Below are positions 4,027-11,902 of a stretch of 64,000 bases of DNA, piece by piece; position 1 is the first letter of the stretch; every line of letters starts with the position of its first letter. The DNA lies in the IMG/VR virus record IMGVR_UViG_3300049140_000186, positions 1 to 64,000 of that record. One strand, written 5' to 3'. Made by a program: the position numbers and the translations under genes. The notes beneath the pieces were generated by a model. The model saw nothing but the letters and a program-made list of their open reading frames with translations. It ran no database searches and was not told the DNA's origin. The DNA comes from a virus. Taxonomy: Duplodnaviria; Caudoviricetes.

Positions 4027-4245
4027 TCAGTCCAGCGGCTCGCCTGGGTATGTCTGCTTCCAGAGCATTCGGTGACTCGCTGCGACTATCTGGCGGATGC
4101 CAGTCAACTCGCCGTAGAGGCCGACAAGCGCCGCGCCAATGAACACGGCTGTCCAAGTGTAAGCGCCGTCGAATTCCCACCAGTTCACTATCAGCGGACC
4201 AACCGCGAAAAACAGGTTGGTAGCTCCTTGGCCTAATTCCTTCAT
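4027..4245 (-). CDS. Small membrane protein
   Basis: Hydrophobic segments; GAGGGG SD. Confidence 0.5.
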   Translation of the reverse strand: MKELGQGATNLFFAVGPLIVNWWEFDGAYTWTAVFIGAALVGLYGELTGIRQIVAASHRMLWKQTYPGEPLD

Positions 4246-4297
4246 TGGTTTCCCCTCCGCAGAACCTTCCCATACTAGCAAAGAAAATCCCCAGCAC

Positions 4298-4750
4298 ATG
4301 AGCGATTTAACTGCAAAGCGGGAAGCGTTCGCACTGGCCTATGTCGAGACCGGCAACGGCTCCAAGGCCTATCGGCAGGCGTTCGATGTCGGGAAGGATA
4401 CCAAGCCAGAAACCATCTGGTCGGAAGCCTCTCGCCTCCTGGCTGACCCTAAGGTGTCCGCAAGGGTGGATGAGCTCCAGGCGACGGCTCGCGACATGGC
4501 GCTAGTCTCGGTCGGGACGCTGACCAAAGAGCTAGAAGAGGCTCGGTCAATGGCGATGACAGAGAAGACGCCTTCGGCCGCTATCAGCGCCACGATGGGC
4601 AAAGCCAAGCTACATGGCCTGCTGGTTGAAAAGGTCGAGGCAACCGGGAAAGACGGTGCGCCGCTGGTGCCTGAGACATCATCCCGCGAACTGGCGAAGG
4701 CTATTTCCTACCTCCTGGCAAAAGGCCTGAAAGCGAAGGCTGGTGGCTGA
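4298..4750 (+). CDS. terS: Terminase small subunit
   Basis: LTAKREAFALAYVETGNGSKAYRQAF..ASRLL.DPKVSARVDEL; immediately upstream of TerL. Confidence 0.85.
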   Translation: MSDLTAKREAFALAYVETGNGSKAYRQAFDVGKDTKPETIWSEASRLLADPKVSARVDELQATARDMALVSVGTLTKELEEARSMAMTEKTPSAAISATMGKAKLHGLLVEKVEATGKDGAPLVPETSSRELAKAISYLLAKGLKAKAGG

Positions 4751-6323
4751 CGCGGTAGCAGTCGACCTTCGGGCGCTCGAATCCGTCATAAGCCAACTAT
4801 CTGCCGAAGACCGGCAGGAACTGGTCGCTATGGCCGCTGGCGAACTCGCCAAGCCGTTCCGGCCTAATCCTGGGGCTCAGACCGAAGCGTTGGAAAGCCT
4901 TGCTGATATCCTGCTGTATGGCGGGCAAGCGGGCGGCGGCAAGTCGGCGCTGGAAGTCGGGTGCGCCGCTAACAATCACATGTCGGGGCTGATCCTCCGA
5001 CGCGAAGCTTCGCAACTAGACGGCCTGATTGAGTTCTCCCGGCAAATCCTCTCCGATCACGGAGAGTTCGTCGGCGGCAACGATAACGTCTGGAAGCTGA
5101 ACAACGGGGGCCGCATCAAGTTCGCCGGCCTCAAGCAACCCGACGACTGGCGCAAGCACGCTGGCAATGCTCGGGATTTTATCGCGTTCGATGAAGCGGG
5201 TGAGTTTCTAAAGGAACAGGTCTTCTCGCTCATAGGCTGGCTGCGCACCACGAAAGAGGGGCAACGCTGCCGGGTCATCCTCGGGTCAAACCCGCCGCGT
5301 GGTGGCGATGGCCTCTGGATGATTGAAGAGTTCGCGCCGTGGCTCGATCCCAACTATCCGAACCGGGCTCTGCCTGGGGAACTGCGCTGGGCTATCGTGG
5401 TCGGCGGCACAACGGAATGGGTCGACGGTCCTGGCGCATATGAACGTGGCGGCGAAGAGTACGTCGCAATGTCCCGGACCTTCATCCCGGCCGGTCTCGA
5501 TGACAACCCGTATGTCGACCCTGGCTATAGGGCTCGCCTCCAGGCTCTCCCGGAACCGCTTCGCTCGCAACTGCTGTACGGCGATTTCCAAGCCGGCCGC
5601 GAAGATGACGAATGGCAACTGTTCCCTGGTGAGTGGGTAAAGGCCGCACAAGCAAGGTGGAAGCCTGACGGCTATCAGGGCCTCAAGATGACGGCTCTGG
5701 CTGTCGACGTGGCGCAAGGTGGCCCTGACAGTTCGACGCTCGCCCCTCGATACGGGACATGGTTTGCGCCGCTGGTCGTGAAGCCTGGCGCTGAAACGCC
5801 TGACGGGCCTGCAATCGGGGCAATGGTCTTCGGGGCTCGTCGTGACGGTGCTGGCGTCATCATCGATGTGGGCGGCGGGTATGGTGGCGGCGCGGTAACG
5901 TTCCTCAAGGACAACGGCGTCTCTGTCTCGGCCTACAACGCCTCGCACACCTCAACGGCTCGCTCGAGCGATGGGCAGTGGACTTTCCTTAACAAGCGGG
6001 CCGAAGCGCATTGGCGTCTTCGTGAGGCTCTAGACCCTTCGCAAGAGGGCGGGTCCATCATTGCTCTGCCTCCGGACCCTTTGCTGCTCGCCGATCTGAT
6101 CGCCATCCGGTGGAAGCCGGTAAAGGTGGCGACAATCCAGGTTGAAGAGAAAGTCGCAATCAAAGCTCGGCTCGGGCGCTCTCCTGATCGTGGCGACGCG
6201 GTTGTCATGGCCTGGTCGGAAGGCACGAAACTAGCAATCCGCAAGCTGCATAGCGATGCGCTAGGCGGGCGGCTCCCTCAAGTGGTGGTCGGCCATGCCG
6301 GCGCAAAGAAAGGTCGGCGGTAA
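4743..6323 (+). CDS. terL: Terminase large subunit
   Basis: Walker A YGGQAGGGKS, Walker B FIAFDEAGEF, SNPP motif, nuclease AVDVAQGG and SPDRGDA. Confidence 0.92.
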   Translation: MADAVAVDLRALESVISQLSAEDRQELVAMAAGELAKPFRPNPGAQTEALESLADILLYGGQAGGGKSALEVGCAANNHMSGLILRREASQLDGLIEFSRQILSDHGEFVGGNDNVWKLNNGGRIKFAGLKQPDDWRKHAGNARDFIAFDEAGEFLKEQVFSLIGWLRTTKEGQRCRVILGSNPPRGGDGLWMIEEFAPWLDPNYPNRALPGELRWAIVVGGTTEWVDGPGAYERGGEEYVAMSRTFIPAGLDDNPYVDPGYRARLQALPEPLRSQLLYGDFQAGREDDEWQLFPGEWVKAAQARWKPDGYQGLKMTALAVDVAQGGPDSSTLAPRYGTWFAPLVVKPGAETPDGPAIGAMVFGARRDGAGVIIDVGGGYGGGAVTFLKDNGVSVSAYNASHTSTARSSDGQWTFLNKRAEAHWRLREALDPSQEGGSIIALPPDPLLLADLIAIRWKPVKVATIQVEEKVAIKARLGRSPDRGDAVVMAWSEGTKLAIRKLHSDALGGRLPQVVVGHAGAKKGRR

Positions 6324-6775: not shown

Positions 6776-8416
6776 ATGGCTATCTCCCGCCCGGTTCAAG
6801 ACATCATTGAGCATGGGAACCGTCTGTTCACGCAGAAGGAACCTCTCAATATCCATTGTCAGGAGCTGGCGGAACACTTCTACTATGACCGGGCCGACTT
6901 CACGGGCTCGCTCAACATCGGCGATGACTTCGCTGCGGGCTCCTTCACCTCCCGCGCCTCCCTCTATCGTCGGGAACTCGGCGACTCCTACCGGACGTTT
7001 CTGCGGCCTCCTGACTTCTTCGAAGTGAAGGCGCTGGATGATGACCGCAACAAGCGCTCTGACGCTCGGGAATGGCTGCAATACGCTACGAAGCTCCAGC
7101 GCTCGGCCATGTACCGGCAGGGGGCGTTCTTCACTCGGGCAACCAATATCGGCGACCATGACCACGTGACCTTCGGACAAGCGGTGCTTGATGTCTGCCC
7201 GACAAAGGAACGCAACGCGCTCTATTACAAGGCGTGGCATTTCCGCGATGTGGCCTGGGCCGAAGACTACACTGGCGCGATTTCGGACGTTCACCGCAAC
7301 GAGACGTGCGACCTGATCAACGTCGTCCAGCTATTCGGCGACAAGGTACCGGAAGCGCTGCGCAAGGACGCGGGGAAGACGCCTCGCCGGCCAATCAAGC
7401 TTCGTCATGTGGTAGTGCCTTCGGGCTCCTATGACCTGGGCTATACGCCTCGCAAGGGGCAGGATTGGGCCTCTCTGTGGGTGATGCCTGACGAAGGCGA
7501 AGTCATTGAGAACATAGCGCGAAGCTATCGCGGCTATGTCATTCCTCGGGCTGCTACCGTCTCGGGCTCGCAATATGCCCGCTCGCCGTTCACCTCCATC
7601 ATTCTGCCGGATGCCCGCACAACGCAGGCTATCGAACGCATTCTGCTTGAAGCCGGCGAAAAGGCGATTGACCCGCCGATGATTGGGCAACTCGACGTTG
7701 TGCGCTCCGATGTCGGCCTGTATGCGGGCGGCATTACCTGGCTCGATGCGCAGTATGATGAACGCCTGGGCGAAGGCCTGCGACCTCTCAACATTGACAG
7801 TTCGGCGCTGCCGCACGGCTCGGACATGGCTGCCCGGTTCGATATGGTCATCCGTGAAGGCCTGATGCGCAATCAAATCAGCCTGCCGGAAACTTCGGGC
7901 AAGACGGCCTACGAAGTCCGCAAGATTGTCGAACAGCAAATGCGGGCGCACATTCCAATCTTCGAACCTGTCGAGGTGGAATACAACGAACCGCTCTGCG
8001 CCGAGACGTTCGCCGTCATGCGCGCCATGGGTGCGTTCCCGGTCGATGAAATCCCGCAATCGCTCCAGAACTCCAGCATCGAGTTTTCTTTCAAGTCGCC
8101 GATTAAGGAGCTGGAAGACGACGGCATGCGTCACAAGTTCGTCGAGGGCATGGAACTGCTCTCGGTCGCGGCCAAGGTCGACCCGCTCGTCGCCAAGCTT
8201 CCGAACGCCGTGGAAATCTCGAAAGACCTGTTGCGCGGCACGGGCTGGAAAGAAAGCTGGATCAACGACGACAAGGCGCTGGCGAAGGCTTCGGAAGCCA
8301 TGGACGCCGAAATCCAGGCGCAAGGACAGGCCGAAGCGGTGGGTGGCGTTGCCGCTGCTGCCGGCAAGGCTGCTCCGATGGTCAAGGCGATGGCTGACAT
8401 GGGGCAAGCTGCCTGA
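6776..8416 (+). CDS. Head-tail connector (portal), T7/BPP-1 type
   Basis: 546 aa; DHVTFGQAVL, EKAIDPPMI, KTAYEVRK motifs; position after TerL. Confidence 0.88.
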   Translation: MAISRPVQDIIEHGNRLFTQKEPLNIHCQELAEHFYYDRADFTGSLNIGDDFAAGSFTSRASLYRRELGDSYRTFLRPPDFFEVKALDDDRNKRSDAREWLQYATKLQRSAMYRQGAFFTRATNIGDHDHVTFGQAVLDVCPTKERNALYYKAWHFRDVAWAEDYTGAISDVHRNETCDLINVVQLFGDKVPEALRKDAGKTPRRPIKLRHVVVPSGSYDLGYTPRKGQDWASLWVMPDEGEVIENIARSYRGYVIPRAATVSGSQYARSPFTSIILPDARTTQAIERILLEAGEKAIDPPMIGQLDVVRSDVGLYAGGITWLDAQYDERLGEGLRPLNIDSSALPHGSDMAARFDMVIREGLMRNQISLPETSGKTAYEVRKIVEQQMRAHIPIFEPVEVEYNEPLCAETFAVMRAMGAFPVDEIPQSLQNSSIEFSFKSPIKELEDDGMRHKFVEGMELLSVAAKVDPLVAKLPNAVEISKDLLRGTGWKESWINDDKALAKASEAMDAEIQAQGQAEAVGGVAAAAGKAAPMVKAMADMGQAA

Positions 8417-8682
8417 TGGAACGGCCTCATATCGCTTTCATGCCGGCGAAGTACGATGACTTGGACGTTGAGGCTATCAAGGCGATAGCTGCCGGCAATG
8501 CTTCGCCCGGTCAACAGCAACGCGGCCTCAACTGGATCATACACAAGGCGGCGATGACCTACGATGAACCTTTTGTTCCCGGCCAAGTGGATCTGACTTC
8601 GCACCTCACCGGGCGGGCCAATGTTGGCCGGCAAATCGTCAAGCTGGTGAACGTGCCAATTGACCTTCTCTCCAAGAAGTAA
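8416..8682 (+). CDS. Bbp19-like phage protein
   Basis: LNWII..AAMTYDEPFVPG...GRANVGRQI. Confidence 0.6.
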   Translation: MERPHIAFMPAKYDDLDVEAIKAIAAGNASPGQQQRGLNWIIHKAAMTYDEPFVPGQVDLTSHLTGRANVGRQIVKLVNVPIDLLSKK

Positions 8683-8700
8683 AACCCCGAAAGGCTGATT

Positions 8701-9702
8701 ATGGCTGATGATACCATTGCGGCGGGCGCTACGGCGTCTGCTGGTGACACTGGCGCTGTCGATACCTCGGCTGCTGCCGTTGCCTCTCCTGCGGCCTCTG
8801 TAGCGGCTCCTGCTGCGGCGGCGGCTGCTGACCCGGCGAAGGCAACCGAAGCTGCTGCTGCGGCTCCTGCGGCGGTCGACAAGGGCAAGGAACCACCCGC
8901 TGCCGACGAAGACGGCCCGTGGGGCAAGGACTGGCGCGACAAGCTCGCCAAGGGCGACGCGAAGAAGCTGGCTATGCTCGGCCGGTTTGCCTCTCCCGAA
9001 GCTCTCCTGGCTGCTCAGGAAGAGGCTCAGCGCAAGATTTCCGAAGGGCTCAAGCCGAAGGGCAAGCCCGGCGACAAGGCGACCGCTGACGAATGGGCTG
9101 CCTACCGCAAAGAGCATGGCATTCCCGATGAAGTCGACGGCTATGTGAAGGCGATTCAACTGCCGGACAAGCGGGAGATAGGCGAAGAGGACAAGCCGAT
9201 TGTCGAAGCCTTCGCTGCTCGGGCTCTGGCTCGGGGCGTGGCTCCTGCCGACATGGCGCACATGGTCGACGAATACTATGCAATCCAGGAAGCGCAGATC
9301 GTGGCGCAAGAGGATGTGGACGCTGCTTACAAGCGCGAAAGCATGAAGGCGCTGCGGGAAGAGTACGGCGGCGACTTCGATGTCAACGTCGCGGCGATGC
9401 GGCCCTATTTCGACGGCTTCGATTCCGACTTGTTCGGGAAGCTGATGTCCGGCCGCATGGCTGACGGAACGAAAATCGGCAATGACCCTAACATTGTTCG
9501 CTTCTTCGTCAGCAAGTCGCTCGCCGAAAACCCGATGGCGACAGTTGTTCCCTCGGGTGGCGGCAATATCGAGACGCTCAACAGCGAAATCTCCAGCATG
9601 GAAAAGCGCATGCGCGATGACCGTGTGAACTGGGGAAGAGACTCGGCGGCGCAAGAGCGCTACCGCAAACTGATCACGGCCCGCGACAAGCTCAAGGCCT
9701 GA
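8701..9702 (+). CDS. Capsid scaffolding protein
   Basis: Ala-rich N-terminus, DWRDKLA..., located between portal and capsid genes. Confidence 0.75.
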   Translation: MADDTIAAGATASAGDTGAVDTSAAAVASPAASVAAPAAAAAADPAKATEAAAAAPAAVDKGKEPPAADEDGPWGKDWRDKLAKGDAKKLAMLGRFASPEALLAAQEEAQRKISEGLKPKGKPGDKATADEWAAYRKEHGIPDEVDGYVKAIQLPDKREIGEEDKPIVEAFAARALARGVAPADMAHMVDEYYAIQEAQIVAQEDVDAAYKRESMKALREEYGGDFDVNVAAMRPYFDGFDSDLFGKLMSGRMADGTKIGNDPNIVRFFVSKSLAENPMATVVPSGGGNIETLNSEISSMEKRMRDDRVNWGRDSAAQERYRKLITARDKLKA

Positions 9703-9706
9703 TACA

Positions 9707-9862
9707 TCGCCCGGCAAGACGGCCAACCCGCTTAGCGGCTCCGTCTTCAGGCGAACTCACCAAAAACAGCCCGTAACAGCGCCGAACGCTGGTCTAGCGG
9801 CTCCGGGGAAACCCGGACAACCCGCGACGCCTGCTTACGGACAACCTGCCAACGGCTCCCGA
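9707..9862 (+). ncRNA. Candidate structured cis-regulatory leader of the capsid gene
   Basis: Hairpins at 9707-9754, 9777-9791 and 9792-9828; repeated internal loop (A/C)CAAC opposite CU. Confidence 0.5.
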
Positions 9863-9887
9863 TCCCTCAACAAAAGGAATCTGGACC

Positions 9888-10730
9888 ATGGCCGACACGG
9901 CATTCCAGACACAGTACCGACAGGAATACATCGCTGGCTTCGAATCCGGCGAATCGCCTCTCCGCACGGCGGTTACGACCGAATTCGTGCGCAAGGGCAA
10001 TGAAGCCGTCTTTCTCGTCGCCGACAGCGGCGGTGCGGAAGCGGTAACGCGCGGCGCGAACGGCCTCATCACCGCTCGCTCTGACAACCTGAGCCAGACC
10101 ACGGCCACTCTCGTCGAATGGCACGATCTGGTCCGCAAGACCGACTTCAACGTGTTCGCCTCGCAGGGTGACCAGAAGCGCATCATGCAGGACACGTCCC
10201 TGAACGTGATGAACCGCAAGGTCGATGATGACATCATCACCGAACTGGCAACCGGCACGGTCGACACTGGCGCAGCGGCAACGGGTTCTCTGACCCTCGT
10301 CACCAAGGCTATCGGCATCCTCGGCCTCGCCAAGGTGCCGATTCAGCAGATCGACAACATGTGGGGGCTCATCACTCCCGCCATGCTTGCCTACCTGATG
10401 CGTGATGCGACGTTCTCGTCTCGCGATTACGTCGACATGCAGCCGCTGGCTGGCGGTCCCATCAAGCGCGTTCTGCGCTGGGCGGGCTGCAACTGGCTGA
10501 TGCACCCGGACCTTCCGGGCGTCGGAACCTCTGCTGAGAAGTGCTTCCTGTTCCATCGCGCGTCCATCGGGCATGCGGTCGACACGTCGAACCTCGAAAG
10601 CAAGGTCGGTTACGACGACGAACAGGGTTACTCCTGGGCTCGTACCTCGGCCTTCATGGGCGCGAAGCTGTTGCAGAACAGCGGCGTCGTTGTCGTCAAC
10701 CATGATGGCTCTGCCATCGTCGGCGCATAA
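9888..10730 (+). CDS. Major capsid protein
   Basis: 280 aa; FQTQYRQEYIAGFESGESPLRTAVT; position after scaffold; strong SD. Confidence 0.85.
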   Translation: MADTAFQTQYRQEYIAGFESGESPLRTAVTTEFVRKGNEAVFLVADSGGAEAVTRGANGLITARSDNLSQTTATLVEWHDLVRKTDFNVFASQGDQKRIMQDTSLNVMNRKVDDDIITELATGTVDTGAAATGSLTLVTKAIGILGLAKVPIQQIDNMWGLITPAMLAYLMRDATFSSRDYVDMQPLAGGPIKRVLRWAGCNWLMHPDLPGVGTSAEKCFLFHRASIGHAVDTSNLESKVGYDDEQGYSWARTSAFMGAKLLQNSGVVVVNHDGSAIVGA

Positions 10731-10743
10731 GGAGGGCTGACAC

Positions 10744-11001
10744 ATGGCCTATGAAACCACCAACCCGCCGAAGTGCGTTCTGTCCGGCTTCGGCGGTTCC
10801 GCTTCGATCTTCGTCTACACGGATGGGGATGCCCATACCGCTGTCGACGAGGCCGGCTACTTCACCAACGGCAAGCTCCTTGGCATGAAGGTCGGTGACA
10901 TCGTGTATGTCCAGAACACCACTGGGTACACGACCACGCTGCACTCTGTCAGCGTGGTGTCGGGTGACGCGGCCACCGTCTCGGCGGCTGTCCTGGCCTA
11001 G
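10744..11001 (+). CDS. Putative capsid decoration protein
   Basis: GYFTNGKLLGMKVGDIVYV, directly after the capsid gene. Confidence 0.6.
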   Translation: MAYETTNPPKCVLSGFGGSASIFVYTDGDAHTAVDEAGYFTNGKLLGMKVGDIVYVQNTTGYTTTLHSVSVVSGDAATVSAAVLA

Positions 11002-11012
11002 TTCCAGGGCTT

Positions 11013-11043
11013 GGCGGGGGCTGTAACAGGCTCCCGCCTTTTT
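11013..11043 (+). terminator. Rho-independent terminator
   Basis: GGCGGG...CCCGCC stem followed by TTTTT. Confidence 0.75.
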
Positions 11044-11072
11044 CATTCATCTGATCCGAAAAGGAAGCCGCT

Positions 11073-11444
11073 ATGGCAAACCAGAACATGACGGCGCTTG
11101 TGCTGGCTAATGCCACGGCAAGCGCGAACGGTGCCGATTTGGAGAACGTGTCCGGCAGGGCCGCGCATGTCGTGATCGACATCACTTCGATTACCGGCAC
11201 GGCTCCGACCGCGACCTTTACGGTGCAGGGCAAAGACCCGAAGTCGGGCAAATACTACACCATCCTGGCATCCGCCGCGCTCAACGCTGCCGCAACAACG
11301 GTTCTGCGCATTGGGCCTGCGCTGACGGCTGCCGCCAACCTCGTCGCAAACGATGTCATGCCGCGCGCCTTCCGCGTGATCTGCACCACGGGCGGCACAG
11401 TGACCGACCTTGATGCAACCGTTGGCGTCTCGCTCGTCGACTAA
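11073..11444 (+). CDS. Virion structural protein (beta-rich)
   Basis: Thr/Ala-rich 123 aa in the structural operon. Confidence 0.65.
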   Translation: MANQNMTALVLANATASANGADLENVSGRAAHVVIDITSITGTAPTATFTVQGKDPKSGKYYTILASAALNAAATTVLRIGPALTAAANLVANDVMPRAFRVICTTGGTVTDLDATVGVSLVD

Positions 11445-11467
11445 ACCCCAACCTGGAGAACAGCCCT

Positions 11468-11902
11468 ATGGCATTGAACGTCAACGGCCTTCGTGCGGCC
11501 GAAAGCAAGCGCGTCGTCTATCGCATCGACCTGGCGGCGGACGTGAAAGTCGAAGACCTGTTGCTGCCCGATTTTTGGGTGCACGTCTCCCGACAAATGC
11601 GCGTCGATGACCGCATTGAAGTCATGGCCTGTGAACGCAAGTGGTTCGCCGAACTGACGGTGCTGGAAGTTTCCAAAGCCGGCAACGGTGGCGCTCGGGT
11701 GGCCTATATCGTCGGGCCTGTGGCTCTGACGAACGCGGCCGAAGTCGAGAAGCCGGCGACGCATGAAATCCGCTGGGGCGGGCCGAAGGGTCAATGGCAG
11801 ATTATGCGCGTCTCTGACAAGGCGGTCGTTAAAGGCGGCATTGAGACAAAGGAAGCGGCATCGACCTGGCTGACCGGGTTTGCGCTGGAAAAGGCGGCCT
11901 GA
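11468..11902 (+). CDS. Hypothetical phage protein
   Basis: 144 aa with SD GGAGA. Confidence 0.7.
   Translation: MALNVNGLRAAESKRVVYRIDLAADVKVEDLLLPDFWVHVSRQMRVDDRIEVMACERKWFAELTVLEVSKAGNGGARVAYIVGPVALTNAAEVEKPATHEIRWGGPKGQWQIMRVSDKAVVKGGIETKEAASTWLTGFALEKAA

Follow-up and report, generated by a model that had tools for sequence, protein, structure and literature searches.

A structured RNA leader carrying three copies of one internal-loop module lies directly upstream of the capsid gene in diverse phages

The 185-nt gap between the scaffold-like gene and the major capsid gene in the 64,000-nt stretch of Caudoviricetes prophage DNA analysed here (the window) contains a structured RNA element with three copies of a single internal-loop module. 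The leader is strongly supported as a structured RNA family that is absent from Rfam and falls into an established class, that of cis-acting leaders or operators of mRNAs. The family is large and is found in widespread, apparently uncultured temperate phages with a T7-like head module. We put at about even odds (probability near 0.5) that a phage protein, with the scaffold-like protein as the leading candidate, reads the leader as a multivalent operator by which capsid and scaffold synthesis are balanced.

In the window, the leader is embedded in a T7-like head module that extends from the terminase to the capsid gene (Table 1). The sequence-only reading had described the spacer as a series of hairpins that repeat one asymmetric internal loop, and its coordinates proved exact throughout, both for the spacer itself (9703-9887, between ORFs 8701-9702 and 9888-10730) and for the motifs within it (copy 1 at 9716-9747 with an extension at 9707-11/9750-54, copy 2 at 9797-9825, and the letters of copy 3 at 9838-9859). 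The long strand of the motif, the 12-nt sequence CGGMCAACCYGC, occurs in three mismatch-free copies in the spacer and nowhere else in the 64 kb. The only clean modules across the window are the two local ones in the leader, and the window's own virus record contains the leader element in single copy.

Table 1. Features of the head module and of the capsid leader, in window coordinates.
Feature	Position	Strand	Remarks
Small and large terminase	4217-6323
Portal, Head-tail_con	6776-8416
88-aa ORF between portal and scaffold-like gene	8416-8682
Scaffold-like all-alpha head-assembly gene, 333 aa	8701-9702	+	F96 = codon 8986-8988, motif LGR-F-ASP
Leader gap, 185 nt, scaffold-like stop to capsid ATG	9703-9887	+	Covariance models R1 and R2 match 9705-9852
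Hairpin H1, module 1, long strand 5', stand-alone	9707-9754	+
H1 helices	basal 9707-11/9750-54; stem 9716-22/9741-47; inner 9728-31/9735-38	+
H1 internal loop	long strand CCAAC 9723-27; short strand CT 9739-40	+
Linker between H1 and domain 2, C/A-rich, unpaired	9755-9776	+	Weak sequence conservation
Domain 2, one long irregular hairpin with modules 3 and 2 nested	9777-9848	+
Domain 2 outer helix	CAG 9777-79/CTG 9846-48	+	Weaker: 82% paired, uncalled by RNAalifold
Module 3 loop	short strand CG 9780-81 opposite long strand ACAAC 9841-45	+
Module 3 helix	CCG 9782-84/CGG 9838-40	+	95% paired; best supported part of copy 3
Domain 2 middle helix, covarying	9788-92/9830-34	+
Module 2 (H2), short strand 5'	9797-9825	+	GCGG-CT-CCGGG-GAAA-CCCGG-ACAAC-CCGC; GAAA cap
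Fourth short-strand-like element, CGGCTCC	9853-9859	+	Partner in copy 3 as first drawn; lineage-specific alternative partner of CTG 9846-48
Hairpin pairing Shine-Dalgarno AGGA (9875-78) with upstream CCT	9858-9884	+	Precedes ATG 9888
Major capsid gene (Pfam Phage_capsid_2, phrog_3437), downstream of leader	9888-10730	+	Served by leader

The MFE fold of the 185-nt gap recovers copies 1 and 2 (z = -2.5). Together with strong covariation and the RNAalifold result, it bears out the hairpins drawn for these two copies in the sequence-only reading. In H1, helices 1-2 are 90-95% paired among relatives and show compensatory changes in all nine pairs, and the hairpin is recovered by RNAalifold. Helices 7-8 of H2 are 95-96% paired, with compensatory changes in 8/8 pairs. 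Stable GNRA, UUCG or CUUG tetraloops close many hairpins of the leader family.

For copy 3, the long strand proposed earlier is real and conserved, but the local hairpin topology assigned to it is wrong for the family. In the MFE fold, the third long strand is paired with an upstream segment and not with the downstream partner suggested before. Helix 9782-84/9838-40 contains a C-G pair in 85 of 85 sequences, next to a pair that is C-G in 70, U-A in 11 and U-G in 4, and was recovered independently by RNAalifold. As CGG 9838-40 thus pairs with CCG 9782-84, copy 3 encloses copy 2, and both have their short strands on the 5' side. The complete local copy-3 hairpin is found in 10 of 35 sequences (1.8 expected), nine of them being the window and its close relatives and the tenth a single further locus, L013; its near confinement to the window's close relatives rules it out as a family-wide feature. 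A bare CYG...CRG contact with the downstream segment can form in 23 of the 35 sequences, compared with about 10 expected, and alternative local pairing of the copy-3 strand is possible.

Capsid homologues were collected from GTDB (18 loci, from Mesorhizobium, Pseudaminobacter and other alpha-, beta- and gammaproteobacterial MAGs), from IMG/VR (565 confirmed, 80 kept) and from metagenomes (547 confirmed, 80 kept). Visual inspection of the 300 nt that precede the capsid gene shows GGAYAACCCG-like strands in a constant order, also where capsid identity is as low as 55%. A MAFFT alignment of 129 upstream regions was too gappy, RNAalifold found no structure in it, and it was replaced by iterative covariance models. 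The first model (R1), for which the window and 12 close relatives served as seed and the structure was written from the window's fold, gave full-length matches at 46 of 100 non-redundant loci (E < 0.004), each immediately 5' of the capsid gene and on its strand. The second (R2), which is R1 rebuilt once on its own matches, identifies an element of ~145 nt in 83 of 100 diverse phage loci, in each case on the + strand and directly 5' of the capsid gene.

In an 88-row alignment, the proportion of paired cells is 90.6%, both partners have changed in 25 of 27 pairs, and the covariation score is 0.446, compared with at most 0.072 when partners are slid by 1-3 columns; the alignment was fitted to the covariance model, which favours structure, but the margin is large nonetheless. 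The observed values were reached by none of 500 shuffles. RNAalifold's own prediction, made from a 46-row alignment, recovers six of eight helices. At paired positions, G-U combinations outnumber A-C combinations by 70 to 47, which is a weak strand signal only. The covariance-model alignment also contains the same loop in swapped topologies, as noted earlier from the window, and the loop is conserved among homologous spacers, in the form N-Y-A-M-C opposite C-N, with covarying helices around it. Selection on RNA structure, argued earlier from a loop kept through permutation, is confirmed by the double changes, the covariation score and the shuffles.

The element corresponds to no named Rfam family, as had been surmised. 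A search of window positions 9400-10200 against Rfam 15 at E <= 10 returned only a spurious Giardia U6 match (13.7 bits against a gathering score of 100), and the same database gave nothing at gathering score for twenty homologous loci. Among 50,697 phage records, blastn and tblastn searches with the spacer and the capsid gave a single match, a capsid of 25% identity from a human-faecal 'Bacteriophage sp.'. The capsid family comprises more than 560 IMG/VR contigs and no isolate among the phage collection, and the whole phage group appears to be uncultured. A catalogue published in 2023 contains about 10,000 candidate structured RNAs from IMG/VR, five of which are located upstream of the major capsid protein domain PHA00201 (PMC10690425). 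These candidates are unnamed, and the text of that paper gives neither structure nor function for them; the leader element may be among them.

The module has the consensus 5'-G[N-Y-A-M-C]C / 5'-G[C-N]C and forms a 5x2 internal loop between G-C-rich helices, in which A3 is conserved to about 96% and C5 to about 100%. The leader has three modules in two topologies that differ by a swap of strand order. They are located 40-180 nt upstream of the capsid start, and the last one ends about 40 nt before the ATG. Scanning IMG/VR for the H1-type pattern gave 108 matches, of which 36 lie 113-209 nt upstream of a capsid homologue, two more lie upstream of a more divergent Phage_capsid_2 member, and several lie just past the start codon of a scaffold-like ORF. 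Partial R2 matches are likewise present at the start of the scaffold-like ORF. A strict module finder gives a density of 3.16/kb for capsid leaders and 1.59/kb for the first 120 nt of scaffold ORFs, against 0.034/kb for the remainder of the + strand and 0.021/kb for the - strand. Modules in scaffold ORFs are single, occur in 16 of 84 loci (about 19%), with two additional cases once start sites were corrected, and start mostly 10-23 nt after the ATG. Across loci, the tripeptide encoded at this site varies (DNP, ANP, DTP, VTP, ATP, ASP), whereas the RNA motif is preserved together with its helices. No module is present at the scaffold start of the window itself. The element is always found 5' of Phage_capsid_2 genes or within scaffold-like ORFs, with no link to nadA.

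Loop position 4, which is A or C, varies in a concerted manner across the three modules. The combination is AAA in 51 phages, CCC in 10 and mixed in 8; agreement among modules is 0.918 compared with 0.657 after shuffling, a value that none of 2000 shuffles equalled. The state of position 4 has changed many times on the capsid tree. In phylogenetically independent pairs, position 4 of H2 and of H3 changed the same way in about 6.8 of 7 cases and in opposite ways in none (p about 0.016). H1 shows the same trend, short of significance. Where a module is present at the scaffold start, its position 4 agrees with that of H3 in 8 of 9 phages.

The loop type is also associated with a single residue of the scaffold-like protein. 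Among 80 unique phages (62 A-type and 18 C-type), Tyr occupies the scaffold column of F96 in 16 of 17 C-type phages, whereas none of 60 A-type phages has Tyr there (p = 1.2e-15); residues of the A-type include Phe (46), Met (8) and Leu (3). F96 is part of a conserved turn, L-x-R-(F/Y)-x-S-P. The next scaffold column reaches 2.3e-6 and the best capsid column 4.6e-4, and the best columns of the 88-aa and 85-aa ORFs reached about 1e-3 in an earlier, smaller sample. When scored on the capsid tree, the F96 column and the loop type changed the same way in 7.5 of 9 independent pairs and in opposite ways in none (p about 0.016). The corresponding count for a tree of the scaffold itself is four of six supported pairs, the other two being unchanged and none opposite (p = 0.125). 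The F/Y association could stem from co-inheritance, the scaffold gene adjoining the leader. However, residue 96 is more than 700 nt away from the leader and beats every closer column by nine orders of magnitude, which argues against linkage.

Our AF2 model of the scaffold-like protein (pLDDT 77) has a disordered N-terminal region of 70 residues and places R95-F96 in a turn between two helices. The protein shows no known RNA-binding fold and no relation to PDB sequences or PDB folds, and comparison with T7 gp9 gave an hhalign probability of 0.1%. We infer its scaffold role from the position of the gene and from the predicted all-alpha, N-terminally disordered architecture. Two other small ORFs of the module were considered as partners and rejected. 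ORF 8416-8682, which is kept in most relatives and has the motifs QQxRAL and GRRFVGLQIVKL, is absent from 4 leader-bearing loci and present in 8 loci without the leader. The AF2 model of its product has four helices (pLDDT 82), with no Foldseek match, no PDB match and a best VIA Z of 4.2. ORF 10744-11001, whose product is probably beta-rich as judged by eye from the alignment, reaches at best a loop-type association of p = 0.0025.

In 10 of 82 loci, H1 begins 6-25 nt after the end of a sigma70-like promoter, compared with 0.8% of control windows; at these loci the element therefore constitutes the 5' end of the capsid transcript. No promoter was detected upstream of the leader in the window, so that the leader is probably internal to a polycistronic RNA there. 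The sole terminator-like site in 8400-11500 is located at 11013-11038, after a small ORF 3' of the capsid gene, and fits a capsid-centred transcription unit that ends at this point. It is also the terminator-like site nearest to the gap 9703-9887, which contains none of its own, that is, no hairpin followed by a U-run. An intrinsic terminator or attenuator was rejected, as the leader hairpins have no U-run. Nor is there support for a family-wide switch that masks the Shine-Dalgarno sequence, the mean probability that this sequence is unpaired being 0.41 in capsid and 0.44 in scaffold start regions.

At positions 9705-9852, the capsid mRNA has a structured 5' leader. According to the reading we favour, each of its three modules is a putative recognition site for a phage-encoded protein, and the three together would form a multivalent operator. 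The candidate reader is the scaffold-like protein encoded just upstream, which may recognize the module via its L-x-R-(F/Y)-x-S-P turn. The free pool of this protein would set the translation and/or stability of the capsid mRNA, and in the ~19% of relatives with a fourth module in the scaffold ORF it would set scaffold synthesis as well. In this manner the two shell proteins could be kept in proportion, either by repression or by activation. The last module stops ~40 nt short of the capsid ATG, so that occlusion of the ribosome site in a simple manner is not obvious. A multivalent protein-binding site for the control of capsid versus scaffold had been among the candidates of the sequence-only reading. 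It gains indirect support from the modules in scaffold ORFs, the concerted loop changes and the co-variation with F96, and it is from these that we infer binding and regulation.

Several of these observations could also be explained without a phage partner, by a compact 5' structure that either blocks 5'-end-dependent decay of the capsid mRNA or brings in a conserved host factor, such as the 30S subunit, S1 or an RNA chaperone, to give a high output of the two head genes. Capsid and scaffold are the proteins required in most copies per virion, and both the promoters 6-25 nt before H1 in 10 of 82 loci, which put the element at or near the 5' end of the transcript, and the stable tetraloops on many hairpins are in line with such a function. 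We nevertheless regard it as unlikely: a plain stabiliser has no need of conserved loop letters, of three copies or of concerted A-to-C switching, an enhancer would be oddly placed as a stable hairpin that starts 10-23 nt into an ORF, and the co-variation with a single residue of the scaffold indicates a phage partner. Less probable again is a processing or elongation signal, which could be an RNase III/E site that parts the capsid message from the upstream polycistron, or put-like or NusG-paralog-dependent antitermination. T7 RNase III sites are irregular duplexes of about 20 bp with an internal loop, and domain 2 resembles them as a long irregular duplex with asymmetric internal loops, with both the duplex length and the loops of a T7-type site present. 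The lack of a detected promoter upstream in the window, which places the leader inside a polycistronic transcript, and the terminator-like site downstream would also suit this type of signal. However, RNase III sites do not need a conserved loop sequence, the single modules in scaffold ORFs would imply cleavage within coding sequence, and no hairpin with a U-run after it is present. Moreover, in relatives in which the element comes right after a promoter, there is nothing upstream to separate. Hardly credible is a signal at the DNA level, with repeated sites for a late-gene regulator, or a chance arrangement. While the 10-12-nt long strand is indeed a direct repeat, the helices around the repeats are maintained by compensatory changes, their orientation relative to the gene is invariant, and conservation of the element extends to capsids of only about 55% identity.

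We consider it very unlikely that the leader is a riboswitch-like sensor with the modules as small-molecule pockets. The NAD+-I (nadA) riboswitch consists of tandem ADP-binding bulged stem-loops, each with an 8-nt ACANCCCC bulge and nothing opposite, in which the bulge C's reach a distal AGYG loop, at a distance of 7 bp, to form tertiary pairs (PMC7297122, PMC6859854). In the phage leader, the long strand with its first paired bases, ACA[A/C]CCC, is similar to the ACANCCCC bulge, which is the closest sequence signature among the known systems compared, and the loop letters are highly conserved. Both RNAs have tandem bulged stem-loops (PMC7297122, PMC6859854), that is, repeated similar domains in a 5' leader (three modules in the phage), and both have a conserved strand ACA-N-CCC whose C's pair with G's. 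However, the phage RNA has a 5x2 internal loop in place of the 8-nt bulge, with two nucleotides opposite and a closing pair that is G-C and not C-G, and the C's that follow the loop are in ordinary, local and covarying Watson-Crick pairs (CG 59, UA 9). Its alignment contains neither the 7-bp P1a nor P1b nor an AGYG loop, its three modules are in two topologies and adjoin a capsid gene without a link to nadA, and Rfam gave no match even at E <= 10. Of the defining features, only the tandem stem-loops are shared; as the bulge architecture and the nadA association that define NAD+-I are absent, the phage leader is not a member of this class. The concerted loop changes and the association with a scaffold residue better suit a protein. 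A narrower version, in which the modules, as relatives of the ADP-binding ACANCCCC domain, bind a ligand and gate capsid and scaffold synthesis according to the host nucleotide or NAD+ state, is a shade less probable than a sensor in general. If it were true, the phage may sense, for example, NAD+ depletion by defence systems.

A multivalent operator read by the scaffold-like protein would share features with other phage systems. Post-transcriptional autoregulation of the scaffolding protein gene of phage P22 was reportedly described by Wyckoff and Casjens in 1985 (J Virol 53:192). As in P22, the free pool of scaffolding protein would feed back post-transcriptionally on head-protein synthesis, so that expression is coupled to assembly. 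In contrast to P22, the presumptive regulation here involves a defined, covarying RNA module that is located mainly in the capsid mRNA and only sometimes in the scaffold mRNA, and the P22 proteins are unrelated to the scaffold-like protein and the capsid studied here. We know of no RNA operator that has been defined in P22.

Like the operators for MS2 and PP7 coat protein (at the replicase start), T4 gp32 and RegA, the modules would be small structured sites at or near starts that set the stoichiometry of phage products, with a putative reader in our case. The modules in scaffold ORFs, 10-23 nt after the ATG, resemble these operators in position, whereas the capsid-leader sites are 40-180 nt upstream of the start and not over it. 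The recognition element also differs, being an internal loop here and a hairpin loop or bulged A in the known operators. The genomic slot, between a scaffold(-like) and a capsid gene in a T7-like head module, is that of the T7 gene 9-gene 10 junction. The 5' hairpin at T7 phi10 (L287:1125-1145) has the loop ACAAC, a 5-mer of the long strand described here. In contrast to the leader in the window, phi10 has one plain hairpin, without repeats or a 5x2 loop, and no ACAAC hairpin is present in the phi9 leader. We rejected phi10 ACAAC as a related motif; without an internal loop and absent from phi9, it is probably a chance resemblance.

If the proposed circuit is true, the leader would be the first case in which an RNA operator for the assembly-coupled control of shell proteins has been defined in a phage, a form of control that to our knowledge has so far been only a phenomenon in P22. 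The loop base (A or C) and the scaffold residue (Phe or Tyr) form a testable specificity pair. If binding is confirmed, the module, which is small, portable and occurs in either strand order, would be a useful RNA-protein recognition unit.

Some relatives deviate in the surroundings of the leader. At two loci (L081:1914-2804 and L097:1937-2824), the ORF directly 5' of the capsid leader starts M-R-G/P-I-H-E-N-T-V-I...N-A-C-H-L-x-C-A-x-C. From this radical-SAM-like CX3CX2C motif, an enzyme gene appears to have been inserted between the scaffold and capsid genes. In an IMGVR_UViG contig (L279, - strand), the capsid ORF starts ~160 nt past the H1 match and ends after ~9 codons (MAATAFQTQ*), and similarity to the capsid picks up again ~1.2 kb downstream; this may be an intron, a homing-endonuclease or another mobile insertion at the very start of the capsid gene. 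Alphaproteobacterial MAG loci (L007-L009) contain a REP-like palindrome, CCCCTCACCTTAATCCTCTCCCCGCAnGCGGGGAGAGG, 60-150 nt upstream of H1. In a sub-lineage whose leader is without H1 (L042, L045 and L037), a long inverted repeat, CTACAAGTAAAACTT...AAGTTTTACTTGTAG, is located upstream of the leader and overlaps a promoter-like TTGATA...TAGTAT, an arrangement that looks like an operator-controlled capsid promoter.
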